Origin: Dictyostelium discoideum
Taxonomy: Eukaryota
Assembly (NCBI GenBank): GCA_000004695.1
Contig: CM000152.2
Location: forward strand, 2,624,001 to 2,688,000
Direction: 5' to 3'
DNA: 64,000 bases
This document shows, piece after piece, positions 17,846 through 63,858 of the stretch (positions are counted from its first letter, which is position 1; each line of letters starts with the position of its first letter). The notes below the pieces were generated by a model. The model searched no databases and was not told where the DNA came from. It saw nothing but the letters and a program-made list of their open reading frames with translations. Both the position numbers and the translations under genes were made by a program.

Positions 17846-21863
<4,018 letters not shown>

Positions 21864-24500: not shown

Positions 24501-24640
24501 CCCCATGCCAAAATTAATATGGTAATTTTTAGGAGCCATATTAATTTCAGCATGCATATACAACCTGTTTTTAGGCTGAAATTAATATGGTAATTTTAGC
24601 CTGCTGGAATTAATATGTTGAAATTGGCATGGAACATATA
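24497..24640. repeat. Palindromic repeat family 2 copy inserted into FNIP exon fragment
   Basis: catgccaaaattaatatggtaatttttaggagccatattaatttcagcatg… with inverted partner. Confidence 0.6.
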
Positions 24641-29833: not shown

Positions 29834-30299
29834 TACGGTCATTAATTAATTTTTGCGTACATTTATTTCTTAAATAATTAATCATTTACTTTAATAATAA
29901 TAAAATAAATAAATTCAATAATAATAAAACAATAAATAAAATTAATAATAAATAATCAAATTTTATTAAATAATTTATTTTAAAAGAATGTCAACTAATA
30001 ATAACGAAGATATTGATAATGATGAATTGCAACAACAGGATAATGAGGAACAAAAACGACAACCACAGGTATCAACATTCAATGAACAGCAACGTCAAAT
30101 AAGGGAACAGCAGCAGGTAATAGATAAACAAAATCAACTTCTTCAACAACACATTCAATTAATAAATCAACAATCTCAACAACAATTAAATAATCATTCG
30201 ACACCACCATCACCCAACATTGCAACACCAATAACTTCAGCAGCAATAACCAACACAATAAAGAAATCATTAGGAAAAATTAACACTGATGATACCGAC

Positions 30300-31089: not shown

Positions 31090-31330
31090 AAAAGTTGTAT
31101 GCAAGGAAATAATGGAAAAGAGATATGATAAACTTGTTGAATCAGTTGGCTTTTTAAAACATCCTATATCTAATGTGCTTTATCGTGCAATTGCTGCTGA
31201 ATCTACCTCTATTGTTATTGAAACTCCCACTGATTACCAAATCCAAAAAAAATTACTATTCTGGTAAAAGCAAAAGTCATGTGGTTAAATTATTCGTAAA
31301 CATGATAGCTTTCCAATCTTGGGTAATTAT
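31090..31330 (+). mobile_element. Degenerate DNA-transposon fragment encoding HTH-type transposase N-terminus
   Basis: …MEKRYDKLVESVGFLKHPISNVLYRAIAAESTS… ; inverted, more complete copy at 42290-42560. Confidence 0.4.
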
Positions 31331-32013: not shown

Positions 32014-33370
32014 TTAAAGTTCAATTTTAGGTTCCCAAGTTGACAGATTCCAATCTTTCACTTTTGGGTGAGCGAATTGTTGTTTATATTTTGAAGTTCT
32101 GAGAATAAAATTTTGAAATGGGAAATTTGTTAAAGGAGTATCAAATAGGTATAAATGAACTGTTGATTGTGGTATTTCAGTTATTTTTTGATTAAATCCA
32201 TCTAATAAAGACAAATCAGTAACACCATTTGGTATTGAACCTTTTAATAATGGTTTTTTAATTGCACCAACAAATAGATGTGTAATTGATTGTGGTAGCA
32301 TACCTTCTTTTAGTTGAACATTGAATCCATCAAGTAATACCAAATATTTAACCGATGTTGGAATTGAACCTATTTTAATTGTTTTAACACTTGGTGCAAT
32401 CGCTAAATGAGTAGTACCATTTGGAATGATAGAATCATTTTTATAAATAAAACATTCTTTTCCTCCAGCTTTATATAAATAATAATTTATATTAATAACT
32501 TCTATTAAAACAATCTAATATTATAATTCTATTAAAATACTATAGTATTTTTTTAAAATATTTACCAATAACTCTTTTTGGATCCTTTACATTTGTAATA
32601 GAGAGAGAATTGCTAATTTCAAATATTTCTTTAATTGATTCTTTAACTTGTTCACTATTATTTACAAAATTTACATTTTTATATTGATCCATTAGTTCAT
32701 TGATTTTATTTTCATTTTGATTATCTTTTATTAATAGTCGTGATTGACAACAATGTTTTAATATTTCAATATGTTGATAACTATTATTATCATTAATGAT
32801 TTGATCAATATTTATTTGATTTATTGTATTTTTATATTTATTTGTAATTAAATTAATATTATTTGAATAATCATGTACAATGGTTGAAATGTTTGTATTG
32901 ATATCTTTATTTTCATCATAGAGTGTTACTAATTGTTTGATTTTATCAATTTCGATGATTGGTAATAATTTGGGGAGTTCTTTAAATACTTCTGTGATTG
33001 TATTTACATTTTCAGTGTGTTTATCTTCTAATGATTTAAATAAATTATTTGATTCATTTAATAACTCATTATTGATACCTATTTGTTTATCTAAATTTTG
33101 AAGGTGATTATTTTTAAATTCTTCAAAGATTTCTTTTGAATTCTCTACATCTATACGACCAAATTTATGACCATTATGATCTAAAAGAATACATTCATTA
33201 CATACTACATCCTGTTATAATTGTAATCATACAAAAATGAGTGACAATTACTTTTTATTTAAAGGGTGGAAACATGTTAAAATAATTACCTTACATGTTG
33301 CACAAATCATTTTGATTTTGTGCTCTTTATGTATTGCACATTTGTTATCATATTTACTTATACTATCCAT
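32014..33370 (-). CDS. B-box zinc finger / coiled-coil / FNIP-repeat protein, array copy 5; exons 33290..33370, 32566..33211, 32014..32468
   Basis: Same three-exon structure and junction sequences as copy 3; exon lengths 81/646/455; FNIP exon …LLDGFNQKITEIPQSTVHLYLFDTPLTNFPFQNF…. Confidence 0.8.
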
Positions 33371-35708: not shown

Positions 35709-35812
35709 GGTCAGTGAAATTAAATAAAAAAATTCAATGCTACTGTAGTGAAATTAAATAGTAAAATTCACTACGCTGGGCAGTGAAATTTTATTGAAAA
35801 TTCCCTACAACA
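35709..35812. mobile_element. MITE-like family 1 copy truncating array copy 6
   Basis: aatttaaggtcagtgaaatt…cactacgctgggcagtgaaatttt…ttccctacaacaa; same outer motif as copy at 59534-59632 (reverse complement). Confidence 0.5.
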
Positions 35813-36235
35813 ATATCTTTATTTTCATCATAGAGTGTTACTAATTGTTTGATTTTATCAATTTCAATGATTTGTAATAATTTGGAGAGTTCTTTAAATA
35901 CTTCTGTGATTGTGTTTACATTTTCAGTATGTTTATCTTCTAATGGTTTAAATAAATTAATTGATTCATTTAATAACTCAAAGATTTCTTTTGAATTCTC
36001 TACACCAATACGATCAAATTTATGGCCATTATGATCTAAAAGAATACATTCTACACATACTACTACCTATTATATTTATAATAATCATACAAAAATGAGT
36101 AAGGATCTTTTATTATTTAAAGAGGTGGATATTTGTTACGATAATTACCTTACATGTTGCACAAATCATTTTAATATCGTGCTCTTTATGTATAGCACAT
36201 TTGTTATCATATTTATTTATATTATTCATTGTGTG
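35813..36235 (-). pseudogene. B-box/FNIP family copy 6: exon 1 plus 5' part of exon 2 with internal deletion, 3' end replaced by MITE
   Basis: ATG ~36231 MNNINKYDNKCAIHKEHDIKMICATCK|…; exon 2 breaks at 35813. Confidence 0.55.
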
Positions 36236-36726: not shown

Positions 36727-37510
36727 CTAAAGTTCAAGTTTAGTCTCCCAAACACCATCCCAATTATTCACATTTGGATAAGTGAGTTGTTGTTTATATT
36801 TTGTGCTTCTGTATATGGTTTTGGAATATGGGAATTTTGTTAAAGGAGTATCAAAAAGTATTAATTGATTAACTGATTGTGGTATTTCAGTTATTTCTTG
36901 ATTAAATCCATCAAATAAAAGTAAATAATAAACACCATTTGGTATTGAACCTTTTAATAATGGTTTTTTAATTGCACCAACCAATAGAGATAATTGACTG
37001 TGGTAGCATACCTTCTGTTAGTTCAACATTGAATCCATCAAGTAATAGCAAAGCTTGAACCGATGTTGGAATTGAACCTGTTTTAATTGTTTTAGTACTT
37101 GGTGCAATCGCTACATGAGTAGTACCATTTAGAACCATAGAATCCTCTTTATAAATAAAATATTCAGCTCCTCCAGCTTAAATAAAAAATTTAATATTAA
37201 TAACCTCCATTAAAACAATCTAATATCATTATAATTCTATTAAAATAAAAATGAATATTTACAAATAACTCTTTTTGGATCCTTTACATTTGTAATATAG
37301 GGAGAATAGGTAATTTCAAATATTTCTTTAATTGATTCTTTAACTTGTTCACAATTATTTACAATATTTACATTTTTATATTGATTCATTAATTCATTGA
37401 TTTTATTTTCATTTTGATTATCTTTTAATAATAATTTTGATTGAGAACAATGTTTTAATATTTCAATATGTTGATCGTTATTATTATTAATGATTTTATC
37501 AATTTTTAAT
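36727..37510 (-). pseudogene. B-box/FNIP family copy 7: FNIP exon with 1-bp frameshift (~37000) and partial exon 2; no exon 1
   Basis: …LPQSIISIGWCN*… instead of …LPQSIKSLLVGAIKK…; exon 2 truncated at 37510 by unrelated AT-rich sequence. Confidence 0.6.
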
Positions 37511-37755: not shown

Positions 37756-39115
37756 TTAAAATTCAATTATAGGCTCCCAACCACCACCATCCCAATTATT
37801 CACATTTGAACAGTGAGTGAGTTTTTGTTTATATTTTGGGTTTCTGTAAATGGTTTTGGAATATGGGAAATTTGTTAAAAGAGTATCGAAAAGTAATAAT
37901 TGATAAACTGATTGTGGTATTTCACTGATTGCTTGATTAAATCCATCTAATAAAAATAAACATAAAACACCATTTGGTATTGAACCTTTTAATAATGGTT
38001 TTTTAATTGCACCAACTAATAGAGATTTAATTGATTGTGGTAGCATACCTTCTGTTAGTTCAACATTGAATCCATCAAGTAATATCAAATATTGAACCGA
38101 TGTTGGAATTGAACCTATTTTAATTGTTTTAACACTTGGTGCAATCGCTACACGAACAGTACCATTTGGAATGATAGAATCATTTTTATAAATAAAATAT
38201 TCTTTTCCTCCAGCTTTATATAAATAATAATTTATATTAATAACCTCTATTAAAACAATCTAATATTATAATTCTATTAAAATACTATAGTATTTTTTTA
38301 AAATATTTACCAGTAACTCTTTTTGGATCCTTTACATTTGTAATAGAGAGAGAATTGCTAATTTCAAATATTTCTTTAATTGATTCTTTAACTTGTTTAC
38401 TATTATTTACAATATTTACATTTTTATATTGATTTATTAATTCTTTGATTTTATTTTCATTTTGATTATCTTTTATTAATAGTCGTGATTGACAACAATG
38501 TTTTAATATTTCAATATGTTGATAACTATTATTATTATTAATGATTTGATCAATATTTATATGATTTATTGTATTTTTATATTTATTTGTAATTAAATTA
38601 ATATTATTTAAATTATCATGTATAATGGTTGAAATGTTTGTATTGATATCTTTATTTTCATCATAGAGTGTTACTAATTGTTTGATTTTATCAATTTCAA
38701 TGATTGGTAATATTTTGGAGAGTTCTTTAAATACTTCTGTGATTGTATTTACATTTTCAGTATGTTTATCTTCTATTGATTTAAATAAATTATTTGATTT
38801 ATTTAATAACTCATTATTGATACCTATTTGTTTATCTAAATTTTGAAGGTGATTATTTTTAAATTCTTCAAAGATTTCTTTTGAATTCTCTACATCTATA
38901 CGACCAAATTTATGACCATTATGATCTAAAAGAATACATTCATTACATACTACATCCTGTTATAATTGTAATCATACAAAAATGAGTGACAATTACTTTT
39001 TATTTAAAGGGTGGAAACATGTTAAAATAATTACCTTACATGTTGCACAAATCATTTTGATTTTGTGCTCTTTATGTATTGCACATTTGTTATCATATTT
39101 ATTTATACTATCCAT
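37756..39115 (-). CDS. B-box zinc finger / coiled-coil / FNIP-repeat protein, array copy 8; exons 39035..39115, 38311..38956, 37756..38213
   Basis: Intact frame across exons (81/646/458 nt); junction sequences as in copy 3. Confidence 0.8.
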
Positions 39116-40393: not shown

Positions 40394-41872
40394 TTAAAGT
40401 TCAATTTTAATCTCCCAATTACTAAGATCCCAATTATTCACATTTGAGTGAGAGAGTTGTTGTTTATATTTTGGGCTTCTGTAAATGTATTTGGAAAGTG
40501 GGATATTTTTGAAAGGAGTATTCAAAAGGTAGAAACTGTTAACTGATTGTGGCAATTCACTTATTTCTTGATTAAATCCATCTAATAAAAACAAATTTAA
40601 AACACCATTTGGTATTGAACCTTTTAATAATGGTTTTTTAATTGCACCTACCAATAGAGATTTAATTGATTGTGGTAGCATACCTTCTGTTAGTTCAACA
40701 TTGAATCCATCAAGTAATAGCAAATATTCAACCGATTTTGGAATTGAACCTACTTTAATTGTTTTAACACTTGGTGCAATAGCTACAAATCCACTACCAT
40801 TTGGAACGATAGAATCATCTTTATAAATAAAATACTCAATTCCTACAACTTTATAAAATAATTTAATAACCTCCATTATAACAATCTAATATTATTATAA
40901 TTGTTGTAGTGAAAATGAGCAGGTTTTTTTTTTTTACCAACAGTAGTGAAAAATTTCACCAAGTATAGCAGGGAAAAAAAAAATGTTAAATTTCCCTACA
41001 ACAATAATTCTATTAAAATAATATAGAATATTTACCAGTAACTCTTTTTGGATCCTTTACATTTGTAATAGAGGGAAAATCGCTAATTTCGAATATTTCT
41101 TTAATTGATTCTTTAACTTGTTCACTATTATTTACAATATTTACATTTTTATATTGATTCATTAGTTCATTAATTTTATTTTCATTTTGATTATCTTTTA
41201 TTAGTAGTCGTGATTGATGACAATGTTTTAATATTTCAATATGTTGATAGTTATTATTATTATAATTATTATTATTATTAATATTATTTTTATTATTATT
41301 AATGATTTGATCAATATTTATATGATTTATTGTATTTTTATATTTATTTGTAATTAAATTAATAGTATTTAAATTATCATGTACAATGGTTGAAATGTTT
41401 GTATTGATATCTTTATTTTCATCATAGAGTGTTACTAATTGTTTGATTTTATCAATTTCAATGATTGGTAATAATTTGGAGAGTTCTTTAAATTCTTCTG
41501 TGATTGTATTTACATTTTCAGTGTGTTTATCTTCTAATGATTTAAATAAATTATTTGATTTATTTAATAGCTCATTATTGATACCAATTTGTTTATCTAA
41601 ATTTTGAATGTGATTATTTTTAAATTCTTCAAAGATTTCTTTTGAATTCTCTACATCTATACGATCAAGTTTATGACCATTATGATCTAAAACAATACAT
41701 TCAACACATACTACTACCTATTAAATTTATAATAATCATATCAAAGAATCACTTTTTATTTAAAGGGGTGGATATATGTTACAATAATTACCTTACATTT
41801 TGTACAAATCAATTTAATATCATGCCCTTTATGTATTGCACATTTGTTATCATATTTATTTATACTATCCAT
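40394..41872 (-). CDS. B-box zinc finger / coiled-coil / FNIP-repeat protein, array copy 9; exons 41792..41872, 41036..41717, 40394..40848; MITE in intron 2
   Basis: Intact frame (81/682/455 nt); exon 2 carries in-frame 36-nt poly-N insertion (…IINNNKNNINNNNNYNNNNYQHI…). Confidence 0.75.
40901..41004. mobile_element. MITE-like family 1 copy (104 bp) in intron 2 of array copy 9, same site as copy-4 insertion
   Basis: attaTAA|ttgttgtagtgaaaatgagc…aaatgttaaatttccctacaacaa|TAAttc. Confidence 0.6.
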
Positions 41873-42289
41873 TGTGTGAGAGAATTTTTAAGAAAATTTA
41901 AGAAAAAAAAAAAATTTGGGAAAAAAAAAAAAAAAAAAAAAAAATTAAAATAAAATAAAATCTAATTTTTTGATGTTGGAAATCTTGTTTTGTGAAAAAA
42001 AAAAAAAAGATATTATTTTTTTTTTATTTTATATTTTATTAAACTAATATTAATTTTTTATTTATTTTTGACTATTTAAATTGTTTTTATTTTTTTATTA
42101 TTTAATCATTTGATTGTTTTAATATTTTTTACGAATAATTTGACCATTATTATAGTCTATTTTGGTCTTTTATAGTATATATTTGATCATGATCGGAACC
42201 TGGGAATCCCTCAGGATGTAGTAACATTAATCTGTATGATCTAGTGCATACCTCACAATGAAATTTGACCACATGACTTTGCTTTTACA

Positions 42290-42560
42290 AGAATAGTATT
42301 TTTTTTTGGATTTGGTAATCAGTGGGAGTTTCAATATCAATAGAGGTAGATTCAGCAGCAATTGCACGATAAAGCACATTAGAAATAGGATGTTTTAAAA
42401 AGCCAACTGATTCAACAAGTTTATCATATCTCTTTTCCATTATTTCCTTGCATACAACTCAAAGTGAATGAATGGTTGACTATAGTGATTTTGAAATGTT
42501 TTTGGACTAATACCAAAAGTAACACATATCTCATAAATTGGAAGATATTGTTTCCATTAT
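42290..42560 (-). mobile_element. Degenerate DNA-transposon fragment with HTH (…LPIYEICVTFGISPKTFQNHYSQPF…) followed by frameshifted MEKRYDKLVESVGFLKHPISNVLYRAIAAESTSIDIETPTDYQ…
   Basis: Minus-strand translation; inverted relative to the 31090-31330 copy. Confidence 0.45.
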
Positions 42561-44170: not shown

Positions 44171-44926
44171 TTAAAGTTCAATTTTAGGTTCCCAATTTGA
44201 CACACCATTCCAATTACTCATTTTTGGGTGAGTGAGTTGTTGTTTATATTTTGGAGTTCTGTGAATAAAATTTTGAAATGGGAAATTTGTTAAAGGAGTA
44301 TCAAATAGGAATAAATTAGCTGATTGGGGTATTTCAGTTATTTTTTGATTAAATCCATCTAATAAAAACAAATCAGTAACACCATTTGGTATTGAACCTT
44401 TTAATAATGGTTTTTTAATTGCACCAACAAATAGATATCTAATTGATTGTGGTAGCATACCTTCTTTTAATTGAACATTGAATCCATCAAGTAATATCAC
44501 ACATTTAACCGATGTTGGAATTGAACCTATTTTAACTGTTTTAACACTTGGTGCAATCGCTACATGAGTTGTACCATTTGGAATGATAGAATCATCTTTA
44601 AAAATAAGATATTCATTTCCATCAGCTTTATATAAATAATAATTTAATATTAATAAAATAATTAAAACAATCTAATATTATTATAATTTGATTAAAATAC
44701 TTAATGATATTTACAAGTAACTCTTTTTGGGTCCTTTACATTTATAATAGAGAGAATTACTAATTTCAAATATTTCTTTAATTAAATTTTTAACATGTTC
44801 ACTATTATTTACAAAATTTACTTTTTTATATTGATTCATTAATTCTTTGATTTTTTTTTCATTTTGATTATCTTTTATTAATGGTTGTAATTGACAACAA
44901 TGTTTTAATATTTCAATATGTTGATG

Positions 44927-44998
<72 letters not shown>

Positions 44999-45593
44999 AT
45001 TATTATTATTATTATTAATGATTTGATCAATATTTATTTGATTTATTGTATTTTTATATTTATTTGTAATTAAATTAAAAATATTTAAATTATCATGTAT
45101 AGTGGTTGAAATATTTGTTTTGATATCTTTATTTTCATCATAGAGTGTTACTAATTGTTTGATTTTATCAATTTCAATGATTTGTAATAATTTGAAGAGT
45201 TCTTTAAATACTTCTGTGATTGTATTTACATTTTCAGTATGTTTATCTTCTAATGGTTTAAATAAATTATTTGATTCATTTAATAACTCATTATTGATAT
45301 CAATTTGTTTATCTAAATTTTGAATATGATTTTTAAATTCTTCAAAGATTTCTTTTGAATTCTCTACACCAATACGATCAAATTTATGGCCATTATGATC
45401 TATAAGAATACATTCTACACATACTACTACCTATTATATTTATAATAATCATACAAAAATGAGTAAGGATCTTTTTTTATTTAAAGAGGTGGATATATGT
45501 TACGATTATTACCTTACATATTGCACAAATCATTTTAATATCTTGCTCTTTATGTATAGCACATTTGTTATCATATTTATTTATATTATTCAT
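44171..45593 (-). pseudogene. B-box/FNIP family copy 10: three-exon structure preserved but 2-bp deletion near end of exon 2 (~44760) gives premature stop before the FNIP exon; (att)n expansion in exon 2
   Basis: …AATTCTCTCTATTATAAATGTAAAGG… vs …AATTCTCTCTCTATTACAAATGTAAAGG… in intact copies; frame then reads …KGPKKSYL*; exon 2 length 716 nt not ≡1 mod 3. Confidence 0.6.
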
Positions 45594-46349: not shown

Positions 46350-47723
46350 TTAAAATTCAATTTTAGGCTCCCAATAATAAGCAGTATCCCAAGTATACAC
46401 CCTTGGGTGAGTGATTTGTTGTTTATATTTTGTGCTTCTGAATATGTTTTTAGAATATGGGAATTTTGTTAAAGGAGTGTCAAAAAGTAATAATTCTTTA
46501 ACTGATTGTGGTATTTCACTTATTGCTTGATTAAATCCATCTAAAAAAAACAAATTTAAAACACCATTTGGTATTGAACTTTTTAATAATGGTTTTCTAA
46601 TTGCACCTACAAAAAGATGTGTAATTGATTGTGGTAGCATGCCTTCTGTTAGTTTAACATTGAATCCATCAAGTAATATCACACATTTAACTGATGTTGG
46701 AATTGAACCTATTTTAACTGTTTTAACACTTGGTGCAATCGCTACATGAGTTGTACCATTTGGAATGATAGAATCATCTTTATAAATAAAACATTCATTT
46801 CCACCAGCTTTATATAAATAATAATTTAATATTAATAAAATAATTAAAACAATCTAATATTATTATAATTTTATTAAAATACTTAATGATATTTACCAGT
46901 AACTCTTTTTGGGTCCTTTACATTTGTAATAGAGAGAGAATTGCTAATTTCGAATATTTCTTTAATTGATTCTTTAACTTGTTCACAATTATTTACAATA
47001 TTTACATTTTTATATTGATTTATTAATTCTTGGATTTTATTTTCATTTTGATTATCTTTTATTAACAGTCGTGATTGATAACAATGTTTTAATATTTCAA
47101 TATGTTGATAGTTATTATTATTTTTATTATTATTAATGATTTGATCAATATTTATATGATTTATTGTATTTTTATATTTATTTGTAATTAAATTAATATT
47201 ATTTAAATTATCATGTATAGTGGTTGAAATGTTTGTATTGATATCTTTATTTTCATCATAGAGTGTTACTAATTGTTTGATTTTATCAATTTCAATGATT
47301 TGTAATAATTTGGAGAGTTCTTTAAATACTTCTGTGATTGTATTTACATTTTCAGTGTGTTTATCTTCTAATGATTTAAATAAATTATTTGATTCATTTA
47401 ATAACTCATTATTGATATCAATTTGTTTATCTAAATTTTGAATGTGATTATTTTTAAATTCTTCAAAGATTGTTTTTGAATTCTCTGCATTTATAAAATC
47501 AAATCTATGACCATTATGATCTGAAACAATACATCCATCACATACTACTACCTTGAAATAATAAAAATAGAGACAATGAGAATTACTTTTTGTTTTAACA
47601 AGTGGTAAATGTTTTTAAATAATAAAAAACTATAACTACCTTACATGTTGAACAAACTAATCTAATATCAAAATCTTTATGCAATGCACATTTATTATCA
47701 TATTTATTAATTAGAGTAGTCAT
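46350..47723 (-). CDS. B-box zinc finger / coiled-coil / FNIP-repeat protein, array copy 11; exons 47640..47723, 46897..47551, 46350..46807
   Basis: MTTLINKYDNKCALHKDFDIRLVCSTCK|VVVCDGCIVSDHNGHRFDF…; intact frame (84/655/458 nt). Confidence 0.75.
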
Positions 47724-48369: not shown

Positions 48370-49661
48370 TTACATTTCAATTTGAGAGTAACCATTTGAA
48401 TTCCATAACACTTCATTAAAACCATTGAGATCTTGTTTACAAGAAGGAGTTTTATAAACTCTAACTGATTTTATTAAAGTTTGAGGGATTTTAAAAGAAG
48501 TATCACCTAAATAGATTTGAGTAACATTTGGTGGTATTTCAGAGATTTCTTGATTGAATCCATCTAATAAAAATAAAAATGAAACACTTTGTGGTATTGA
48601 TTTCTTTATCAATGGTTTTCTAATGGCACCAATATGTAACCATTGGACGGAATTTGGTAATAAACCTTCAGTTAATTGAAGATTAAAGCCATTTAATAAT
48701 GCAATTCTTTGAATAGTTGCAGGAATTGAACCAATTGTTAAATTTTTAATACTTGGTCCTAATGCTAAATAAAGTGTGCCATTTGGTATAACACAACCAT
48801 CTTTATAAATGAAATATTCACCACCACCCACTTTTTTGTTTTTTTAATTATAATTTAAAATAATTAGGAATTAGTTTTAAAGGATTTTAAAAAATTAAAA
48901 AATTAAAATAAATTAAAATATTATATTTACATTTTACTCTTTTTGGATCTTTATAAGTTGCAGAACTTAATTTAATTTTAAAAGTATCTTTAATTGAATT
49001 CTTTACAAAATCCATTGAATTTTCAATTGTAACTTTATTAAATTCATTTAATAAATCAATATTTTTATTTTCAGTATTCTTTTCTTTTACCAACATTTGA
49101 GATTGATGACAATGTTTTAATAATTCTAAATGTTGATGATTATTTCCTTTAATATTTTGATCATTATTAAAAATTTGTTGGATATTAAAATTATTAATTG
49201 TATCCTTGTATTTATTTGTAATTAAATGAGCATTCTTTGAATTATTTTCAAGTTTTTTTGAAATTTTTGAATGAGTTTCTTTATTTTCATCATAATGACT
49301 GACCAAATGTTTAATGGTATCCTTTTCAACTGAATCCAAAATTGTATGTAATTGTTTAAATTCATTGGAAATTGTATTGACATTGTGAATATGTTCCTCT
49401 TCAAGTTCATTAAAAATCTCATTTGATTTATTTAATAATTCTTTATCACCATCCAAACATTTAATTAAAAATTGAAAATTATTATTTTTAAATTCTTGAA
49501 AAATTTGATTACAATTTTCAGAGGTAATAAAATCAATTGAATGGCTACGATGATGATTTTTTGAAACAATACAATAATCACAAACTGGAACTCTACAATC
49601 ACTACAAATAAATCTATAATCATAATCATTATGTAGTGTACATTTATTATCAAATTTACCT

Positions 49662-49666
<5 letters not shown>
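48370..49666 (-). CDS. Divergent B-box zinc finger / coiled-coil / FNIP-repeat paralog (array copy 12, 398 aa); two exons 48931..49666, 48370..48830 (no intron within B-box)
   Basis: MAGKFDNKCTLHNDYDYRFICSDCRVPVCDYCIVSKNHHRSHSIDF… ; donor GTAAAT at 48930 phase 1, acceptor aaaAG 48831; …LLDGFNQEISEIPPNVTQIYLGDTSFKIPQTL…. Confidence 0.8.
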
Positions 49667-51506: not shown

Positions 51507-51535
51507 TGCGACTTTTGGTCTCCCTGATTAAAAAG

Positions 51536-51607
51536 CTCCCCATTCGGGAATCGAACCCGAGGTACCAGTGTGAAAGACTAGAGTGTTACCGACTACACCA
51601 ATGAGGA
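51536..51607 (-). tRNA. tRNA-Glu (anticodon UUC)
   Basis: TCCTCAT-TG-GTGT-AGTCGGTA-ACAC-T-CTAGT-CTTTCAC-ACTGG-TACC-TCGGG-TTCGATT-CCCGA-ATGGGGA-G; all stems pair. Confidence 0.85.
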
Positions 51608-51719
51608 TTTGGTTTGAATTTTGATTTTTTTATATAATAAAATTTCACGTTTTTTGGAAAAAAACAAACAACAACAACAATCTCTTTTTTTGATTATTTC
51701 ATTTTTCATATAAAAAAGA

Positions 51720-51754
<35 letters not shown>

Positions 51755-51829
51755 GGAACCAAGTTAATTAGAAAATTTCCAGATTTTTAACTTTTTAAAG
51801 AAAAATAAAAAAGATAGAAAGAAAATAAA

Positions 51830-53164
51830 ATGAAAATCACAAACAACACCACAAATATTAAGCAACACAAATGCCTACAAAAAATAAGCGAAATTGTGGA
51901 TAAAACTCAATTAAAAAAAAAACAATTCAAATACGTCATAAACATCAATCACGAACCAGACGATAAAATAAAAAAAGATTTAGAAAAAAGTTTGGACAAA
52001 AAAGATGTTTTAATCAAAAGTAATAATACATTCAAAATTCTCACAGACAGTATTAGTACAGTAATCTATTTTGTAAATATGTTTGATGCAGAATTAAAAG
52101 GACAATTTATAACCACTATAAGACCAAAAAATATGTATACAGATTTTGATTGGTATAAATCACTCACAGAAATAGAATGGGTAATAGAAAATGAAGGATG
52201 TAAACTAATTAAATCAGAAATTAAAGGCGAAACTCTAATTATCAAAACAGTGAAAAGAGTCGTAGAAGAATTTGACACTATCATTGAACTAGACAATCTA
52301 ACATTAATTGGACACTCCAACAAAGGATGGAGAGATCAAACCTCATTACCAGAAAATCAAGAAGAAAACAAAAATAAAAAACAATCAGATGAACAACAAC
52401 CACAATCTACATCAGAACAAATACCAAAACAAGGAAAAAGAACAATCATTATCCCACCAATCACATCCTCATCTAATGATAAAACATTTATGGCCCTAGA
52501 TGATACAGCTCAAAAGGTAATAGAAGCATCACTAGAAAACGTAGATGAACTAACAAGAATAGAGAATGAGATCAATACACAATCGATAAACAATCAAGAA
52601 ATTAAAACAAAATCAGAAAAACCTATCGAACCACCATCTCCATACAATACACCAATAAAACAACACGGCGAAACAAAGGGACTAACAACGGAAGAAAAAC
52701 TTAGAGAGGCAAATGATATCTTCGACTTCACCAGCCCAAACACTGATGCAATAAGAAAAATAGAATTCCCACTTTCAATCCCTTCAAATCAATGGTTCTT
52801 CTCCTCTCCAATAAAACATATCATGAGTTTCAGCCCAACCTATGGTACACCATCGAAAATTATCGATTCACCAAGTAAATTGTTAAACACACCAAAAAAG
52901 AAACAACAAGACAAAACAAACAAGACCAACAAAACACCAGTCAAACCAAAATTGGGTGAATATGGACAAAAAAGCATAAAAACAAAAATGGATGAAGATA
53001 TAGACAACTTCAACAAGGAAATTCTAAAACAAATCAATAAATCAAAAAACCCCACAAACACACAAGACCAACAACACAACGAACAAAGTAAAGATCAGTT
53101 AGAAGACAAAATAAACCAGAAACTTCAAAAGGTAGATAAAAATCTACCCCAAATAAAACTATAA
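51830..53164 (+). CDS. TRE5-A ORF1 protein
   Basis: 444-aa ORF; N-terminal 60 aa repeated in 3' B-module and in remnant at 2087-2330. Confidence 0.7.
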   Translation: MKITNNTTNIKQHKCLQKISEIVDKTQLKKKQFKYVININHEPDDKIKKDLEKSLDKKDVLIKSNNTFKILTDSISTVIYFVNMFDAELKGQFITTIRPKNMYTDFDWYKSLTEIEWVIENEGCKLIKSEIKGETLIIKTVKRVVEEFDTIIELDNLTLIGHSNKGWRDQTSLPENQEENKNKKQSDEQQPQSTSEQIPKQGKRTIIIPPITSSSNDKTFMALDDTAQKVIEASLENVDELTRIENEINTQSINNQEIKTKSEKPIEPPSPYNTPIKQHGETKGLTTEEKLREANDIFDFTSPNTDAIRKIEFPLSIPSNQWFFSSPIKHIMSFSPTYGTPSKIIDSPSKLLNTPKKKQQDKTNKTNKTPVKPKLGEYGQKSIKTKMDEDIDNFNKEILKQINKSKNPTNTQDQQHNEQSKDQLEDKINQKLQKVDKNLPQIKL

Positions 53165-53418
53165 AGAAAAACACAATAAGAATAGGTGTTTGGAACGTCC
53201 AAGGATCCAACACCATCCAATCTGCCAGCATAATAAACACCGTTTTAGACAACAACAAGCTGGACGCAGCACTTCTAACTGAAACAAATATAAAAACAAA
53301 TAAAATTTACTCAATAAATCAACAATATAAAAACAAAATAACACACCACGCACCAATTGATAAAACAGGACAAGGGGTGTCACAAATCATCATCAACACC
53401 CGCAATAGAACTTCCTAA
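53161..53418 (+). pseudogene. TRE5-A ORF2 5' fragment (AP-endonuclease N-terminus), truncated by internal deletion
   Basis: IGVWNVQGSNTIQSASIINTVLDNNKLDAALLTETNIK… in -1 frame relative to ORF1, followed by poly(A) 53463-53518. Confidence 0.55.
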
Positions 53419-53460
53419 ACATCTCAAAAAATACAATAATTCACTCAGTACTTTCTATAA

Positions 53461-53520
<60 letters not shown>

Positions 53521-54077
53521 CAAGTTAATCAGAAAAATAAAAAAGATAGAAAGAAAATAAAAGGAAAATCACAAACAACACCACAAATATTAAGCAACAC
53601 AAATGCCTACAAAAAATAAGCGAAATTGTGGATAAAACTCAATTAAAAAAAAAACAATTCAAATACGTCATAAACATCAATCACGAACCAGACGATAAAA
53701 TAAAAAAAGATTTAGAAAAAAGTTTGGACAAAAAAGATGTTTTAATCAAAAAGACCCTGTAAAAAAAAAAAAAAAAATAAAATGAGATCTAGCATCTCAA
53801 GGAGAAGCAAATAATAATTGCGTTATCCAATTCAAAAAAAAAAAAATTTCACGTTTTTTCGAATTAAATAAATTATAAAATTTCAAAATTTTTTCCAGAT
53901 TTTTTAATATTCAATTTTTCCCCATTGGAATCATTAAAAATAATGAAAAATATGTATTATTAAACGAAAATGTAACATTTTAAATGTATATTTGTTTAAA
54001 TAAAAAAATTATTTCGGTTCAAAAAAAAAAAAAAAAATTAAAAATAAAAAAAAAAAAAAAAGTCGTTCGTTTTTTAA

Positions 54078-54218: not shown

Positions 54219-54501
54219 ATGGAATCTGAAAATAAAAATAATAATAAAAAAGTTAAAGAAGAATCTAAAGTTAAAGTTAAATTTATAACTAATGATGCAA
54301 ATATTAGAGTTACAGATACACCAATTGCTGTACCAGTTCGTTTAGGTCGTCTTGGTTTATCAGAAGTAATTCATCATTTAAGAGAAGAAGAAAACGAAAC
54401 ATCAAAACCATTCGATTTCCTTATTAATGGTAAATTTATTAGAACAACTTTAGATAAACATATTAAAAATGCAAATTTAAGTGAAGTAAGTTATAATTAT
54501 T

Positions 54502-54536
<35 letters not shown>

Positions 54537-55731
54537 TTATTATTAATATTATTAATAATATTATTTACTAATTTTTTTTTTTTATTTTTTTTTTTTTAAA
54601 AAAAAGGAACAAATTATTACAATTGAATATTTAGAAGCAATTACAGAACCAAAAAGAGAAAAAGAATGTCAACATGATGATTGGGTTAGTTGTGTTGATG
54701 GTAGTAATTTTGGATTAGTAGTTAGTGGATCATATGATTTAGGTGTTAGAGTTTGGGGATATGATGGTGAACTTATTTCAACTGGTACTGGTCATTTAGC
54801 AGGTGTAAAAAGTGTTTGTTGGATTAGTGATAAAAACGCTGATAATCTTAGTTTTGTATCAGCATCAATGGATAAAACATTACGTGTTTGGAATTTCAAT
54901 AAATCACAATCTGAAATCAAAGCATTGGCATGCTTAAAAGAGCATACTGGTACAATTGAATCTGTTTACGTTTCACCAGATTCATCACGTATTGTATCGG
55001 CTTCAATGGATTCAACAATTAAATTATGGAGTATTAAAGACATACCAAATCAACATGCAACCACTTCAAGCTCCATTGAAAAGAGTAATAGTAAAAAACG
55101 TAGATTAGCAAACAACACCAATAATGAAACAGCAGCCGTCGACCAACAATCAGAGATCATTCATAATATAACGGAGTCATTGGCATCGGTAACCGTACCA
55201 AACAGTCAAGGTGTTACAGTGGTCAATTGGACAACCCAATTCCAAATGTTGTCAGGTTCAATGGATTCAAAAATTAGATTATGGGATGTTAGTACATTGG
55301 TTGCAAATGATACAATCCCTACACCTGCTCCATTAACCGATTTGGATTATTCAATGGAATCTGGTTTAATTGTAACTGCACATAAAGATAGAATCGTTAG
55401 AATTTGGGATCCAAGATCATCCGATGAAACTAAATCTCAAACTCAATCTTTAATCTCTCATAAAACTTGGGTAACAAGTGTAAATTGGAATCCATCTTCA
55501 AAATATCATTGTTGTTCTACCTCTCATGATGGTACCGTCAAATATTGGGATATCCGTACAAAGATTCCATTATACACTATTGATACTTTAGAGAAATCAA
55601 AAGATAAAGTTTTATCATCATCTTTCATTTCAAATAAAAATAAAAATATTAATGATTATTCAATTGTTTCTGGTGGTACTGATTCAAAATTAAGAATTCA
55701 TTATAATGATAAACAAGAACAACAACAATAA
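54219..55731 (+). CDS. wdr12: Ribosome biogenesis protein WDR12/Ytm1 homolog (N-terminal NLE ubiquitin-like domain + WD40 repeats); exons 54219..54485, 54607..55731
   Basis: VKFITNDANIRVTDTPIAVPVRLGRLGLSEVIHHL (NLE), then multiple WD repeats (…SGSYDLGVRVW…, …SASMDKTLRVWN…, …SGSMDSKIRLWD…, …TSHDGTVKYWD…); GTAAGT donor 54486, acceptor aaaaAG 54606. Confidence 0.8.
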
Positions 55732-57662: not shown

Positions 57663-58741
57663 ATGAAATCTTCACCATCAACGACATCGCCATCGGCTTC
57701 AAATCCACAATTTAAACTCAAAAGTATGTTTTTATATATATATATATATGCTTAAATCAAAAATTAAAGTAACGCAATAACAATATTAATTTTTTTATTT
57801 TTTTTATTTTTTTTATTTTTTTTTATTTTCAAAATATAGAACCAAATAAATTTTCAACTACTACAGCAAAATCTATTGTGCCATTAAATCTTGGTAGTGA
57901 GAAAAGTGAAAAGGGTTTAGTAAGTAATAATGGAATTTTTTCAAATACAATAAACACATCAGGACAACCAACCATACCATTGGTTTCTTCTAATAGTGTT
58001 TGGGGTGGAGTAAAACCAGCCACTCCCGTTATTACAACTACACCAACACCATCATCAACAACAACAGCAACAACAACACCAGTAACACCATCATCACCTC
58101 AACAAACTACATCAACAACAAATACAACATCATCAAACACTAATACAAATACAGGAGCACCACAAACAGTTGCAAGTTTAATCCAATCAACTCTTTTACA
58201 TCCATCACTTATAAATTCTTCTACATCATCACCACTTGGTGGCTCAACTTCATCTTCAACATCATCAATTTCATCTTCAACAGAAAATTTAGCTGCTTCA
58301 TCAACTTCACCTCCACCACCACAACCATCATCATCATCACAACCATCATCATCAACTACTACAAACCCAATAAATAATGCATCAACAACTGCGCAATCTC
58401 AATCAAATACTGTAGATACACAACAAACATCAAACACATCAAATTTAGTTATACCACCACAACCAACCACCACCACAACAACAACAACAGCGACCCCATC
58501 AACAACTAATCCAACTACAACAAATGATTCCTATATTTCACCATCTGTCGCAAAAAAGAAAGATATTATTCAACCACCATCACCTCCAACCTTTTCAACA
58601 ATTAATAAAAATACCAATTATCCTGCACTTGGTAAAAAAGATGAATTAAATAAACCAAAAACAATTGCCATGGAATATACATCAGCAGTAACAACAGCAA
58701 CAGCATCATCAACATCAATACATCTAACTCAACCACAATGA
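57663..58741 (+). CDS. S/T/P-rich low-complexity protein; exons 57663..57723, 57840..58741
   Basis: MKSSPSTTSPSASNPQFKLK|KPNKFSTTTAKSIVPLNLGSEKSEK…; GTATGT donor at 57724, acceptor atatAG 57839, phase 1. Confidence 0.55.
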
Positions 58742-58766: not shown

Positions 58767-58866
58767 NNNNNNNNNNNNNNNNNNNNNNNNNNNNNNNNNN
58801 NNNNNNNNNNNNNNNNNNNNNNNNNNNNNNNNNNNNNNNNNNNNNNNNNNNNNNNNNNNNNNNNNN
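58767..58866. other. Assembly gap (100 N)
   Basis: Run of N. Confidence 1.
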
Positions 58867-59540
58867 TAGATAACAAACCAAAACCATCAATTTCACTATT
58901 TGCAAATAAAACAAGGAAAGGAAGAGAGAATAGATCAATATTATATTACCTTTTAATATCAATTAAAAATCAAATATCAAATGATGATTTTTTAATTATG
59001 GAACAATTAGTAACTATATGTTTTAAATTATATAGTGACTCTTTTGATGAAAATGATTTAAATTCACTTCAAGTATTAATTGAATCATTTAATGCAAAAG
59101 TAAATTTAATTACTGAAACAGAAATAATGAATTTCCACTTGTTGTTACATTATCCAATCTATATAAAAAATTGGGGTGCACCAAAATACACTTCAGCTGA
59201 AACTTTTGAAGCACAATTATCAAGAATTAAAAATTATTTAAATAATAATACAAATAATAGGGATGAACAATATGAAAGGGTTACCAAATTAAACATGGTG
59301 AAATTTTTTAATTCAGTAGATAAATTAAAAAGTATTGAGCCTGAAAGTACAGCATTAATTATTGGTAACAAAATAAAAAATCCAGGTAATATAGATAATA
59401 TAAAAATTAAATTAGATTCATTATTTCAAAATTATAAAAATATAACTTTTCACTCATCAATTAAAAATAATAAAGAAATATACAATATTGGTGATGCAGT
59501 TGAAGTTGCATCAGATAATGAACTTTCAGGTATGTTGTAG
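58867..59540 (+). CDS. Hypothetical protein, 5'-partial (ORF open from gap edge), ends at MITE-like insertion
   Basis: Frame open from 58867 through Met 58998 to stop 59538-59540; stop lies 5 nt into repeat copy starting 59534. Confidence 0.45.
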
Positions 59541-59632
59541 GGAATTTTCCATAAAATTTCACTACAGTAGCGTAGTGAATTTTATTATTTAATTTCACTA
59601 CAGTAGCGTAGTGAAAAAAAAAAATCACTGAC
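59534..59632. mobile_element. MITE-like family 1 copy (gttgtagggaatttt…cactacagtagcgtagtgaa ×2 …aaatcactgacc)
   Basis: Reverse complement aligns with 35709-35812; possibly terminal repeat region of adjacent Tdd-4-like transposon. Confidence 0.5.
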
Positions 59633-59735
59633 CTTAAATTTTTTTTTTTTTCAAAAAACAAATAAAGTTTATTAAATTGAAATTTTATTTTTTGTTTTAA
59701 TTATTATTTTATTTATTTTTATTATAATTATTGTT

Positions 59736-59774
<39 letters not shown>

Positions 59775-59914
59775 CAATTTTTTTTTTTAAATTTTTTTCA
59801 TTTTTTATTTGTTTATTAAATTGTATTTTTATTTTTTGTTTTAATTATTATTTTATTTATTATTATTGTTAATTTTTTTTTTTTTTCAATTTTTTTTTTT
59901 TTAATTTATTTTTA

Positions 59915-60310
59915 TTAATTTATTTTTATTAACTCCCTGAGTTGTTCAATTGCTTGATTTACCATATCACTGTAAACACTGCACACAATTGAATTTTTTC
60001 TAGCTTTGTTACCTCTGGTGCATTTGATGTTTTTGCATTTTCCTTTGTATACAAAAAAGTCCAAATATAATTCGTTTTCTATTACAGTTTTTACACAATG
60101 TTGGTGAAATTGTTTTGATTTTAATTCTAATGCTTCTAACATCATATTTGAATTTTTAACGATTAAAGCATCACCACTATTTACATATAGTACTTTGGCT
60201 GCTTTTTCGAGGAATTTAGTCAAATTTTCCTCTGAATCTAACTATTCTTCATTGCCATATTCAATGGCTAAATTTCTTAAGAGTTTTATCGAATCTATTA
60301 ATTCTTCGAT
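59915..60310 (-). pseudogene. Transposon-associated small ORF (MIEELIDSIKLLRNLAIEYGNEE*LDSEENLTKFLEKAAK…CKNIKCTRGNKARKNSIVC…) with in-frame TAG
   Basis: Minus ORF 59915-60223 extends upstream in frame through a stop at ~60245. Confidence 0.3.
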
Positions 60311-60549
60311 CATTCTTTTTTTTTGAAATTTTTTTTTATTTTGTTTTTTCAATTTTTTTTTTTTATTTTGTTTTTTCAATTTTTTTTAAGTTTTATTTTT
60401 TTTTATTTTTTTTTATTTTTTTTAACAAATGTAATTTTTTTTTATTTTTTTCAATTTTTTTTTTTTTTTAATTTTTAATTTTTTTTTTTTTTTTTAATTT
60501 TTTGTGTTGATTTGTGTTTTTTTTGTTTTTTTGATTTGGCCACTTGTTT

Positions 60550-63500
60550 TTATTTTCTAATTTCCCCATACCCCCTTCTATTAATTGCAACCAAATCAAG
60601 TTCTAATTTTTGTGTCCTTGTTAACTTTGTTTTTGCAACTTTTTTTGAAGGTATCACATTAACGATTTTTCCTATTGATGGTGATTTGGAAGGTGATTTA
60701 AATGGTGATTTAAAAGGTGAATTGGAAGGTGATTTAAATGGTGAATTGGAAGGTGAAATGGATGGTGATTTGGAAGGTGATTTAAATGGTGATTTGGAAG
60801 GTGATTTAAATGGTGATTTAAATGGTGAATTGGAAGGTGAAATGGATGGTGATTTGAGAGGTGATTTGGATGGTTTAGAATGTGATTTTAAAGGAGGTTT
60901 ATTAACAATTGGTATCTTATGAGGACGGCCTCTGAGACGTTTAACAGTTGTTACTATACCACTACCAGATTGTGGTATAGTATACGATGGTATTATTTGC
61001 ACTTGAGGTATTGGTGGTACTATTTCTTTTAAATTCATATCCTTTCTCAAACAATTCATTAAATTTGGCGCTGTTGGATTATTATTTAAAAATGGGAGTA
61101 TTTCTTCTTGTTCCATTTCATTATTGAGTTTGTGTTGAAATGGATTATCGTTAATGATAGGTGGAATATTTGATGGATTGTTAAGAGCATCTTCCAAAAC
61201 CCTAAATGGATCATTTTGTGTTACCAATTGATGCAAGTTGAAATTGGATAAATCCTTACCAAGATTTTTAATAAACTGAACCAGAAATTCAATAACTTTC
61301 CCATCATTATTTAAATAAAGACCAGAAGTAAAAGAATCAATATCTTTTTGTATGTTTGGCGATGTTCTAAAAATATCAACTGTTGATTGTTTATAAAGAA
61401 CCAACTTGTTACCTCCTACAAAACCAGAGTATAAACCTTTTTTTTGAAGGCTATTGATTCCATCTTCCAAAAATTCAAGTTTATAAAGTTGTTTAGTGTC
61501 TTCCTGTATTACCTTATGAATTTTACACAAAATCAATATTTTCTATTAGAATTAAATATAAAATTTGTTAATTATTACTGTTTCATATATTATTAATCTT
61601 TATGTTTTAATTACTTACATTATTTTTTTTAATTTCTAGAAAGAGTACAGTATCACCAACTTTCAATCCCTTTGGTGGTTTTGAATTCCATTGATTTTGG
61701 TAACTTGTGAGATTTTCAAGAATAATAGCTGTTCTTTCTTCTTTTGAAACATCTGAAACACCAATTGATTGAGAGTCTTGTTCTGATTGAACATTAATAA
61801 ACAAAGGAACAATACCAACAGCTTGAGATGGTGTCATTTTAATTGTTCTTGTTTTTGTATTATTGTAATCATACAAAGCTTGTTTTAATAGTTCAGAAAG
61901 AGACCTAGAAGTACCATCAAGAAAACTAAAATTTATTTATAAATGATTAATTAATAAACATATCGATAATTTATATTGTTCACAATATCATACTCTTGTT
62001 GTTTTAATTTTGAGATCCTCTCCTTGATAGTTCGATTCAATCTTTCTACCATACCTTGAGTTGTTGGTGTACGAGGAGCTCCATGTGCTGACTTGGAGCC
62101 TGGAAAAAGTTTTAGGAATTCTTTTTGGACTTTGTTTTTAAATTCACGTCCATTATCGCAGTGCCATACTTTCACAGGTTTGCCAAAGTACGTGAGAGCC
62201 AAAAAATTGTATATGGGAACTGTTCTCTTTGTTGTCAAACATCTAAAAAATAAATGATAATTAAAATAAAAAAAGAAAACTAATAAATTAATAAATAAAA
62301 AATAAATACCTTCCAGTAGCAAATTTTGTAAAAGAATCTATGCATAGAATAATGTAAACAACATCGGTGTCGTACGGTTGTACAGAGTCATATTGGATAA
62401 GATCATCTAGTTTAGTTAGTATCTTTTCATTATCATCATCGTATGTAACTTTTTCTTTATGTTCACCTTTAATTGATGTTAAATCATAAACCAATCTTGA
62501 GTATTCCTCGGTATCTACAATTGGAGCAAAATCCTTTGTTATACCTATTAATTTATTTAAATTATTAAAAGAGTTTTAATATAAAAGTTACAAAACATCA
62601 TATAAAAATGATTGATACCAAACCTTTTATTCTATTTCGTTGGCAAATGTCACACGTATCTACTGCATCAGATACAAAAGAATACAATCCCATATTATAA
62701 TATTTAGTCTTGTAGTTCCCATAGGTTGCATCTCTTCCTACACAGCGAAGAAAAAACCACCTTTAAATTCGCTTTAAATTAAATTTAAATTTGCTTTAAA
62801 GTCCTGAATTAAAGCAATTTTAAAGGTAATTTTAAAGGTAATTTTTAAGGTTACTTTAAAATCACCTTAAAAATTACCTTTAAAATTCCTTTAAAAATTA
62901 CTTTTTTAATCGCTTTAAAAGCGAGGTCCTGAGTTCGAAGCCGTTATTTAACGGATAAATTTTTTAAAATTTTTTTTTTAATTTTTCAAAAAATTACCAA
63001 AAGGGATTCGATCCCCCGACCCTCTATCAAAGGGTAGTCTCATCAACCATTACACCATTTGATTGCTTTGATGAAAATTTAAAAATGATAGAATATTTTA
63101 TCCCCATTTTTTTGTTCTAAAATTAGATCTTTTTTATTAAAAACCTTAAATTTATGTTTAAAGGAAATTTAAATTCACTTTAAATCTACTTTAAATCTAC
63201 TTTAAATTCTATTTAAAATTAATTTAAAATAAATTTTAAAGGTATTTTTAAATATCTTAAAAATTATCTTAAAAATTACCTTAAAAATCACCTTTAAAAT
63301 CACCTTTAAAATCACCTTTAAAATTGCTTAAAAATTTATTTTAAAGCAAATTTTAAAGGCATTTTTAAATATCTTTAAAATTACCTTAAAAATTACCTTA
63401 AAAATGAATTTTTTAAACGCGGCTTTAAATTCAATTTAAATCCAATTTAAATCAACTTTTCTTTAAATTTGCTTTAAAGGTGCATTTTTCTTTGCTGTGT

Positions 63501-63808
63501 ATATGACCTTTATGCATTTCTTCCCAGAGTGATACCATTCTATAATCATTAATTACTTCTAAACACACTTCTTTTGATATATTTCTATCTCCGCCACAAT
63601 TCATGACTTTTTTTTCAATTCTAAATAATTTTTCTTTTCTGTTTCTGTTTTTTATTGGTCAGAATTTAAAAAATGATTGTGTTATTGTAAGGAAAAATAT
63701 TTACTCATCATGTAAAAATTTATAATTTTTATGTTTAGTATTTTCAAAATTATTATCTTCAATAAATTTTAAATAATTTATAATTTCATTTATTTTATCT
63801 TGTTTCAT
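60550..63808 (-). CDS. Integrase-type (retroviral-like HHCC zinc finger, DDE core, SH3/chromo-like C-terminus, AT-hook and SPxK repeats) transposase of a Tdd-4-like DNA transposon; ≥5 exons; coding sequence interrupted by 717-bp insertion (62762-63478)
   Basis: Exon 1 MKQDKINEIINYLKFIEDNNFENTKHKNYKFLHD|EIEKKVMNCGGDRN…LWEEMHKGHIHSK [insertion] RCVGRDATYGNYKTKYYNMGLYSFVSDAVDTCDICQRNRIK|G ITKDFAPIVDT…VVYIILCIDSFTKFATG|R CLTTKRTV…VWHCDNGREF…HGAPRTPTTQGMVERLNRTIKE…; introns with GTAAAT/GTTTGG/GTATTT donors, phase-consistent; A-rich promoter upstream of ATG 63808. Confidence 0.6.
62762..63478. mobile_element. Inverted-repeat element (TTTAAA-word-rich arms ~62762-62930 and ~63110-63478) with tRNA-like/B-box core, inserted between HH and CC of the transposase zinc finger
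   Basis: Arms are reverse complements (…tttaaaggtaattttaaaggtaatttttaagg… / …ccttaaaaattaccttaaaaatcacctttaaa…); termini ctttaaa…tttaaag; core has GGTCCTGAGTTCGAAGCC (+) and GGGGGATCGAATCCC (-) B-box-like motifs and a perfect anticodon-arm-like hairpin ACCCT-TTGATAG-AGGGT. Confidence 0.45.
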
Positions 63809-63823
63809 TTTGGGAAAATGAAA

Positions 63824-63858
<35 letters not shown>

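Follow-up and report, generated by a model that had tools for sequence, protein, structure and literature searches.

AreA (Autophagy regulator A; DDB_G0279871) of Dictyostelium discoideum was named by Mesquita et al. (2015, Open Biol 5:150088; PMC4554924), who recovered the full-length protein (residues 1-398) as a yeast two-hybrid partner with Atg101 and found in pull-downs that GFP-Atg101 brings AreA-HA down. According to the same report, the protein is cytosolic and areA- mutants develop normally with raised autophagic flux; AreA is described there as a negative regulator of autophagy, one that interacts with the Atg1/ULK complex member Atg101 and limits flux. An HHpred likeness of AreA to TRIM proteins was already remarked in that article, and the portions of its text available to us contain no description of a tandem array, of an edge position of areA, of paralog lineages, or of a contrast in selection. 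Here we analyze these features in a 64,000-nucleotide stretch of the D. discoideum genome (contig CM000152.2, positions 2,624,001 to 2,688,000 of the forward strand; ~20% G+C), called the window below, in which areA stands at one edge of a series of related genes and a short gene fragment stands at the other.

We hold with high confidence that AreA is the conserved edge gene of a fast-changing array and that the fragment is a relic of a different lineage, lineage C. The conserved order runs from an NLE/WD40 gene on the opposite strand to AreA (lineage B1), the A-type copies, type C, a gene for a 594-amino-acid (aa) protein, lineage B2, and Rsm22. Lineage A expands, contracts, recombines, and decays, putatively through unequal crossing-over and gene conversion among its tandem members. 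The fragment would be a type-C relic in situ, left when strain AX4 lost everything upstream of residue ~310 at a breakpoint holding a mir-7131-like repeat. The identity and structure of the gene, the lineages to which sequences are assigned, the synteny, and the contrasts in selection are shown by the comparisons below, and the Atg101 interaction and the flux phenotype are taken from the literature; what we infer is the mechanism, unequal crossing-over, and the role of the repeat in causing the truncation.

The spliced 398-aa product of positions 48370 to 49666 (minus strand) proved identical, in an exact-sequence look-up, to DDB_G0279871 (XP_641480.1, EAL67492.1, Q54W55). The gene numbered copy 12 in a first-pass annotation of the window is the known, annotated, and experimentally characterized autophagy regulator areA, and finding it is largely a rediscovery. 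Since this is the same 398-aa protein with B-box and FNIP repeats that Mesquita et al. studied, the published data apply to it directly. Other window genes are likewise identical to genes of AX4 chromosome 3: DDB_G0279877 (40394-41872), DDB_G0279891 (24955-26296), and DDB_G0279893, which is the edge fragment; literature searches on these three identifiers found nothing. The structure of areA is as follows.

48370-49666, minus strand: areA gene (lineage B1), two exons, 398 aa; ATG at 49666, stop codon TAA at 48372-48370.
48931-49666, minus strand: exon 1, with an uninterrupted B-box at ~49532-49648 and a long helical coiled-coil region at ~48971-49522.
48831-48930, minus strand: sole intron, 100 nucleotides (nt), phase 1, GTAAAT...AAAG.
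48370-48830, minus strand: exon 2, encoding an FNIP-type leucine-rich-repeat (LRR) solenoid and the tail ...YKTPSCKQDLNGFNEVLWNSNGYSQIEM.

The intron lies between the coiled-coil and FNIP parts, a position common to all family members, and the splice junction KDPKRVK/LGGGEY is confirmed by protein P0001. The main copies of the array, here called A-type, carry an extra intron of ~76 to 83 nt inside the B-box after ...C-x2-C-K (...ICATCK/GTAA...AG/VVVC...), where AreA reads through. Their B-box follows the pattern C-x2-H-x8-C-x2-C-x4-C-x2-C-x4-H-x2-H, and that of AreA reads C-x2-H-x8-C-x2-C-x4-C-x2-C-x5-H-x3-H. The first-pass annotation had described a divergent two-exon gene at the array edge, and nucleotide identity bears this out: AreA is 66 to 71% identical to each main copy, compared with 82 to 94% among the main copies. 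Its report of a B-box without an intron is correct with respect to all A-type copies, but the trait is not unique, as lineages B2 and C lack the intron too. The altered B-box spacing that it listed was right for the longer C-terminal end (C-x5-H-x3-H rather than C-x4-H-x2-H) and wrong for the first spacer, which is x8 in all copies and not x7. On each feature used to class a copy as A-type, AreA falls outside the group, with no B-box intron, a C-x5-H-x3-H ending, and 60 to 71% nucleotide identity where at least 78% was required. Retroposition was considered as an origin for the uninterrupted B-box and was rejected, because the second intron is kept and the B-box intron is missing from every lineage other than A.

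A tblastn search with AreA returned a co-oriented (minus-strand) series of related genes spanning 24228 to 49666. Loci around family members were taken from six other assemblies, and every copy was classed by tblastn, which resolved four old lineages.

Lineage A: the main copies; the members in D. discoideum, D. citrinum, and D. dimigraforme carry the B-box intron.
Lineage B1: AreA.
Lineage B2: the P0002/P0011 type, ~50% identical to AreA with the same B-box ending; its gene always adjoins Rsm22.
Lineage C: P0020, P0021, P0022, and P0025, together with the AX4 fragment.

Full-length type-C proteins have a B-box ending (C-x5-H-x2-H, ...CKVAMCKLCIISKDHCGH) and a coiled coil of their own. B1, B2, and C all lack the B-box intron, which A may have gained or B and C may have lost.

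Orthologs of AreA with ≥90% identity were found in seven other assemblies, among them those of D. citrinum, D. dimigraforme, and D. firmibasis, and the identity recorded for these three species spans 88 to 95%. Every locus examined (L003, L005, L006, L008, L009, and the window, where NLE/WD40 occupies 54219-55731) has AreA as the family member nearest to NLE/WD40. The D. dimigraforme order begins on the opposite strand with a gene for a ~1700-aa protein, a Cob adenosyltransferase gene, and NLE/WD40, continues with AreA, three A copies, a C-like gene, C, one opposite-strand gene, B2, and Rsm22, and ends at CAP. The order in D. citrinum agrees with this from NLE/WD40 on, except that there are fewer A copies, that C is reduced to remnants, and that the 594-aa gene lies between C and B2; parts of the conserved order were seen in D. 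firmibasis and in other strains of the D. discoideum group. Neighbor-joining trees were built on 87 to 390 columns, and a tree rooted with distant outgroups from an exhaustive search had the form (A,(C,(B1,B2))), with bootstrap values of 100% each for A, B1, and C, 74.5% for B1+B2, and 67% for B+C. By these comparisons, B1, B2, and C are older than the divergence of D. dimigraforme, D. citrinum, and the D. discoideum group from one another, and AreA and the fragment are both old relative to A yet belong to distinct lineages. D. firmibasis likewise has B1 and a C-like gene. In that species AreA is followed immediately by a C-like gene, and no intron-bearing A-type copy was seen within 10 kb, for which reason lineage A may be younger than B and C. 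Further divergent C-like paralogs were observed in D. dimigraforme (P0184, L002:5573-6974) and D. firmibasis (P0027, L008:12146-13471).

The fragment at the other edge, and the short stub beside it, are placed as follows.

24228-24500, minus strand: lineage-C 3′ remnant, residues ~310-399, annotated as DDB_G0279893 (open reading frame [ORF] 24228-24539).
24059-24120, minus strand: A-type promoter and first-codons stub (CACACAATGAATAATAAAAATAAATATGATAA...), ~60 bp, directly after the C fragment.

The first-pass annotation had noted a distinct FNIP tail in copy 12 (...VRVYKTPSCKQDLNGF...) and the string ...YKSPSCKQQFN... in the fragment, both of which are present, and had read the two sequences as the only members of one old subtype between which the main array grew. 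What could be said for this reading is that the two share YK[ST]PSCKQ and EIPP.V..IY, that a tree of the window sequences alone puts them together outside the main clade (100%), and that a tail-only tree including other species groups AreA with clade C (67%). In an unrooted tree, however, the window-only grouping is no more than what remains once the main clade is set apart. When the homologous tail regions are aligned by codons, AreA and the fragment are 62.7% identical in nucleotides (50.6% in amino acids), which is no higher than AreA compared with the main copies (60 to 65%), and the fragment is 57 to 60% identical to those copies; in this region the fragment, AreA, and the main copies are three roughly equidistant lineages. 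The fragment is far closer to the type-C protein P0022 of strain FIZ (81% aa identity, synonymous divergence [dS] of 0.12) than to AreA (50% aa identity, dS of 0.92). It falls within the type-C clade with 99.5% bootstrap support, as sister to P0022 (93%), and AreA has its own orthologs. The distinct B-box and coiled coil of full-length type C also set that lineage apart from AreA. Common subtype membership, and with it growth of the array between two members of one subtype, is therefore very unlikely in our judgment. The phylogeny that had been proposed as a check did place both edge sequences outside the main clade, whose monophyly reached 100% bootstrap, and not inside it; A copies do expand and contract between older edge lineages, but these edges are not of one subtype.

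Assignment of the fragment to type C rests on several further agreements. The tails of the full-length type-C proteins P0020, P0021, P0022, and P0025 from other Dictyostelium assemblies match it (...IYKSPSCKQQFNN...IIEEK), and it carries the type-C tail signature IYKSPSCKQQF...(V/I)IEE(K/N), lies at the syntenic position after the last A copy, and shares flanking homology. A protein search with the fragment alone (word-index search) matched only itself, and the type-C orthologs were recognized among the AreA matches; a relaxed-parameter blastn search of the fragment region returned mostly AT-rich noise. Type C is intact in FIW, FIZ, and D. dimigraforme. It survives in strain FIR as a longer, frameshifted remnant at the same place (residues 180-399) and in D. 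citrinum as N-terminal scraps. The remnants in AX4, FIR, and D. citrinum show that type C is undergoing decay in several lineages, independently in each. The annotated start codon of DDB_G0279893 falls in a repeat cluster at the 5′ breakpoint; hence this "gene" is most likely a pseudogene relic and is better treated as such than as a protein-coding gene.

The repeats next to the fragment raise another explanation, namely, that the fragment was captured or moved by a mobile element.

24505-24634, no strand assigned: clustered arm motifs of the mir-7131 type, at the 5′ breakpoint of the C fragment.
23757-23845, no strand assigned: near-perfect mir-7131 hairpin, ~380 bp downstream of the fragment.

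The hairpin (87 nt, -59.8 kcal/mol, z score of -13.5) matches Rfam mir-7131 with 96 bits against a gathering score of 74, and it may belong to a small mobile element; a literature search on mir-7131 found nothing. Inverted copies of the motif AATTACCATATTAATTTCAGC at 23814-23852 and 24505-24551 bracket the fragment, whose 5′ breakpoint (24505) abuts the cluster. In the window, the 21-nt arm motif is confined to 21964-24634, that is, to the contig end (21964-22046), the hairpin, and the cluster, and it also lies beside family genes in strain FIZ (L004:6857-6891). Against capture, the fragment holds the place that type C has in other genomes: it comes after the last A copy, and next to it comes an A-type 5′ stub, which parallels the C, A, C order of strain FIZ. 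Homology to the type-C loci of FIR and FIW (L001 and L003) runs 87 bp beyond the fragment's stop codon, to 24141, and the longer FIR remnant occupies the same place. We regard transport by a mobile element as extremely improbable and retain the in situ type-C relic.

A third alternative concerns AreA itself, which could be a mosaic of a B2-like exon 1 and an FNIP exon or tail gained from, or converted by, a type-C neighbor; such an origin would explain the shared PSCKQ motif. An exon-1 tree joins B1 with B2 (74%), exon-2 and tail trees put B1 nearer C (from unsupported to 67%), and AreA exon 2 scores 167 bits against both C and B2. These support values are weak, however. D. citrinum, D. dimigraforme, and D. 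firmibasis already share a fixed, almost unchanged AreA tail, so any mosaic event would be ancient and indistinguishable from shared ancestry. Moreover, the B2 tail resembles that of A (GGGWEVKVEM), and B2 could equally be the converted gene. We consider a mosaic AreA unlikely.

Between these two edges, the window holds the A-type copies.

24955-47723, minus strand: A-type array, all copies with the B-box intron.
24955-26296, minus strand: c1, A-type (DDB_G0279891).
27015-28371, minus strand: c2, A-type.
30257-30970, minus strand: c3, A-type, partial.
32014-33370, minus strand: c4, A-type.
35812-36229, minus strand: c5, A-type 5′ stub.
36727-37500, minus strand: c6, A-type, 5′-truncated and frameshifted.
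37756-39115, minus strand: c7, A-type.
40394-41872, minus strand: c8, A-type (DDB_G0279877).
44171-45593, minus strand: c9, A-type, with a disrupted exon-1 end.
46350-47723, minus strand: c10, A-type.

The number of A copies that separate AreA from the C gene or its remnant differs widely: one intact and one fragmentary A copy in D. citrinum, three and one partial in D. dimigraforme, four in strain FIR, at least five in strain FIW, and in AX4 ~7 apparently intact copies (including c9, with its disrupted exon-1 end), three partial copies, and one stub. A copies group by species in trees. The pairwise dS among AX4 A copies is 0.07 to 0.13, below the value of ~0.3 for AreA of AX4 compared with that of D. 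citrinum. Copy c4 is a mosaic, with an exon 1 like those of c2 and c7; as a whole gene it is 93.6% identical to c2, but its tail is far closer to c9 (93.8% identity) than to c2 (only ~82%). The partial copies c3 and c6 have a frameshift in common (QSIISI[SG]WCN*). Species clustering, low dS, the c4 mosaic, and the c3/c6 frameshift fit unequal crossing-over and gene conversion as the putative mechanism.

Several other features were observed among the copies. The 3′ end of c3 is replaced by sequence with a 143-aa Q-rich ORF on the plus strand (29988-30419), and the c5 stub runs into unrelated S/T-rich sequence. Two sites between array copies, 31093-31291 and 42262-42459, form a 199-bp inverted repeat (97% identity) with no Rfam or tRNA match. 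Pfam searches with the 178-aa, 444-aa, 180-aa, and 143-aa ORFs near the array returned no match.

Ratios of nonsynonymous to synonymous divergence (dN/dS) were estimated by the Nei-Gojobori method with bootstrapping over codons. The ratio was 0.05 in the FNIP part of AreA and 0.12 in its coiled coil, 0.11 in the FNIP part of B2, and 0.59 in that of C. A-type copies gave 0.51 in the coiled coil and 1.11 in the FNIP part (confidence interval, 0.77 to 1.69), and the c10 orthologs of AX4 and FIR gave 0.41 and 1.68, respectively. On these estimates, AreA is under strong purifying selection (0.05 to 0.12), and the A-type FNIP part evolves close to neutrality, in a relaxed or diversifying manner, at a ratio not significantly above 1.

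Several points weigh against the reading of AreA as conserved edge gene and of the fragment as a lineage-C relic. The neighbor-joining trees rest on as few as 87 columns. The deep B+C node reaches only 67%, and the FNIP exon by itself places AreA weakly with C rather than with B2; on both counts, a mosaic AreA or an old gene conversion keeps the small probability that we give it above. At ~80% A+T, the Nei-Gojobori method can bias absolute dN/dS values, although the contrasts between lineages share one method. The downstream end of the conserved order is not represented in the window, where tblastx found none of the 594-aa gene, B2, Rsm22, and CAP; the AX4 B2 gene is also absent from the protein search matches, and the AX4 downstream end is visible only as far as a transposon cluster. 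Finally, experimental data on function in this family concern AreA alone and not the A, B2, or C copies.

The orientation of the array in this sequence needs comment. The 36.8-kb segment 21964-58766, bounded by 100-N gaps (21864-21963 and 58767-58866), is reversed relative to both flanks when compared with CM142509.1 (L006 and L007), a gapless assembly of an essentially identical strain (99.6 to 100% identity), and comparison with the order of genes in FIR, D. dimigraforme, and D. firmibasis shows it to be inverted as well. In all four, the ~1700-aa gene is intact beside Cob adenosyltransferase and NLE/WD40; in the window it is split into 17846-21863 (minus strand) and 57878-58741 (plus strand). 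Both junctions are assembly gaps, which makes a wrongly oriented contig, probably a scaffold misorientation, the likeliest cause. The first-pass annotation had also suggested an inversion in the array; this was rejected, since every copy lies on the same strand and only the whole gap-bounded contig is anomalous. For users of this sequence, the split ~1700-aa gene is a practical consequence of the inverted contig.

With the orientation corrected, the 178-aa ORF and a cluster of long terminal repeat (LTR) retrotransposons come after the array. The stretch 59533-64000, directly after the array end once reoriented, has integrase/rve-like ORFs (e.g., 61951-62322) and an LTR-retrotransposon gene. 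On the NLE/WD40 side of areA, a 2.2-kb segment (51660-53839) with a 444-aa ORF (51830-53164, no Pfam match) is missing from the gapless assembly and from FIR. It starts 52 bp upstream of a tRNA-Glu(UUC) gene (51535-51607, minus strand), head-to-head with it, the position expected for a TRE5-type retroelement. Outside the gap-bounded contig, a tRNA-Cys gene (8481-8554, plus strand) is followed by a non-LTR retrotransposon with ORF1 (8852-10105), an endonuclease-like ORF (10105-10953), and a reverse transcriptase ORF (10917-13808), which accounts for the G+C-rich, strongly skewed block at 8481-13808.

At the protein level, Pfam recognized a B-box in AreA (PF00643; 34.7 bits, gathering cutoff of 24.1) with eight Cys/His zinc ligands and FNIP repeats (PF05725; 41.2 bits, gathering cutoff of 21). 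No RING domain was found by Pfam, and the B-box starts at residue 7, with six residues ahead of it. An AlphaFold (AF2) model of P0001, which is 98% identical to AreA, shows a B-box at residues 1 to 46, long helices at residues 49 to 232 with predicted local distance difference test (pLDDT) scores of only 50 to 75, and an LRR-type solenoid at residues 242 to 390 with regular short strands (242 to 387) and pLDDT scores of >90 (including residues 260 to 350). With Foldseek, the N-terminal part matched TRIM5 B-box2/coiled-coil constructs (probability, 0.89 to 0.99; weak E values of 0.02 to 0.05) and the MuRF1 B2 box (TM score of 0.76 on the target); E values for TRIM-type matches were weak overall (0.02 to 0.15). 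The model thus predicts a RING-less, TRIM-like layout of B-box, ~185-residue coiled coil, and C-terminal FNIP-type LRR solenoid in a protein that is not a TRIM.

What the comparison adds to the published account of AreA is its setting. AreA is a strongly constrained, positionally fixed bookend, next to which inner members vary from ~1 to ~10 copies between close relatives and evolve ~10 to 20 times faster at the protein level. For studies of AreA, ~10 close paralogs next door could buffer or confound knockout phenotypes. We also raise, as a speculation that we think unlikely to be right, that the A-type copies are strain-variable, RING-less TRIM-like LRR adaptors, born beside an Atg101-binding regulator, that would couple variable targets to the Atg1 complex; those targets may be pathogens, prey bacteria, or non-kin cues. 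The FNIP diversification that this supposes is drawn from a dN/dS of ~1.1 overall and 1.7 in the c10 orthologs, together with a constrained coiled coil.

Three known systems resemble this locus in different respects. Birth-and-death tandem families with conserved flanking members share with it copy number variation, species clustering, pseudogene fragments, and mosaics, and the array likewise shows relaxed or elevated dN/dS in the ligand-binding domain. The C-terminal 150 residues of AreA, with the motif LLDGFNQxIxEIPxSV, resemble FNIP/FGxxFN LRR proteins such as CroV588 (PDB 6nyr; PMC9525666), which the solenoid matches both by sequence (phmmer, 4e-39) and by fold (Foldseek, E value of 9e-5). 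They differ in that AreA has ~6 repeats, with DGFN and GAIKKPL units alternating, fused to a B-box and coiled coil, whereas CroV588 has 25 regular repeats that close into a ring (PMC9525666). With TRIM/RBCC proteins (TRIM5alpha, MuRF1), AreA shares a B-box2-type zinc finger, a predicted long helical coiled coil, and then a C-terminal ligand-binding domain, and the tandem, fast-evolving paralogs of its family recall TRIM5/TRIM22-type clusters. Unlike them, AreA has no RING domain, so that E3 ligase activity is not to be assumed, and its C-terminal domain is an FNIP-type LRR and not a PRY-SPRY. If the adaptor speculation were true, the array would be a counterpart in amoebae to the selective autophagy and immunity that TRIM proteins mediate.

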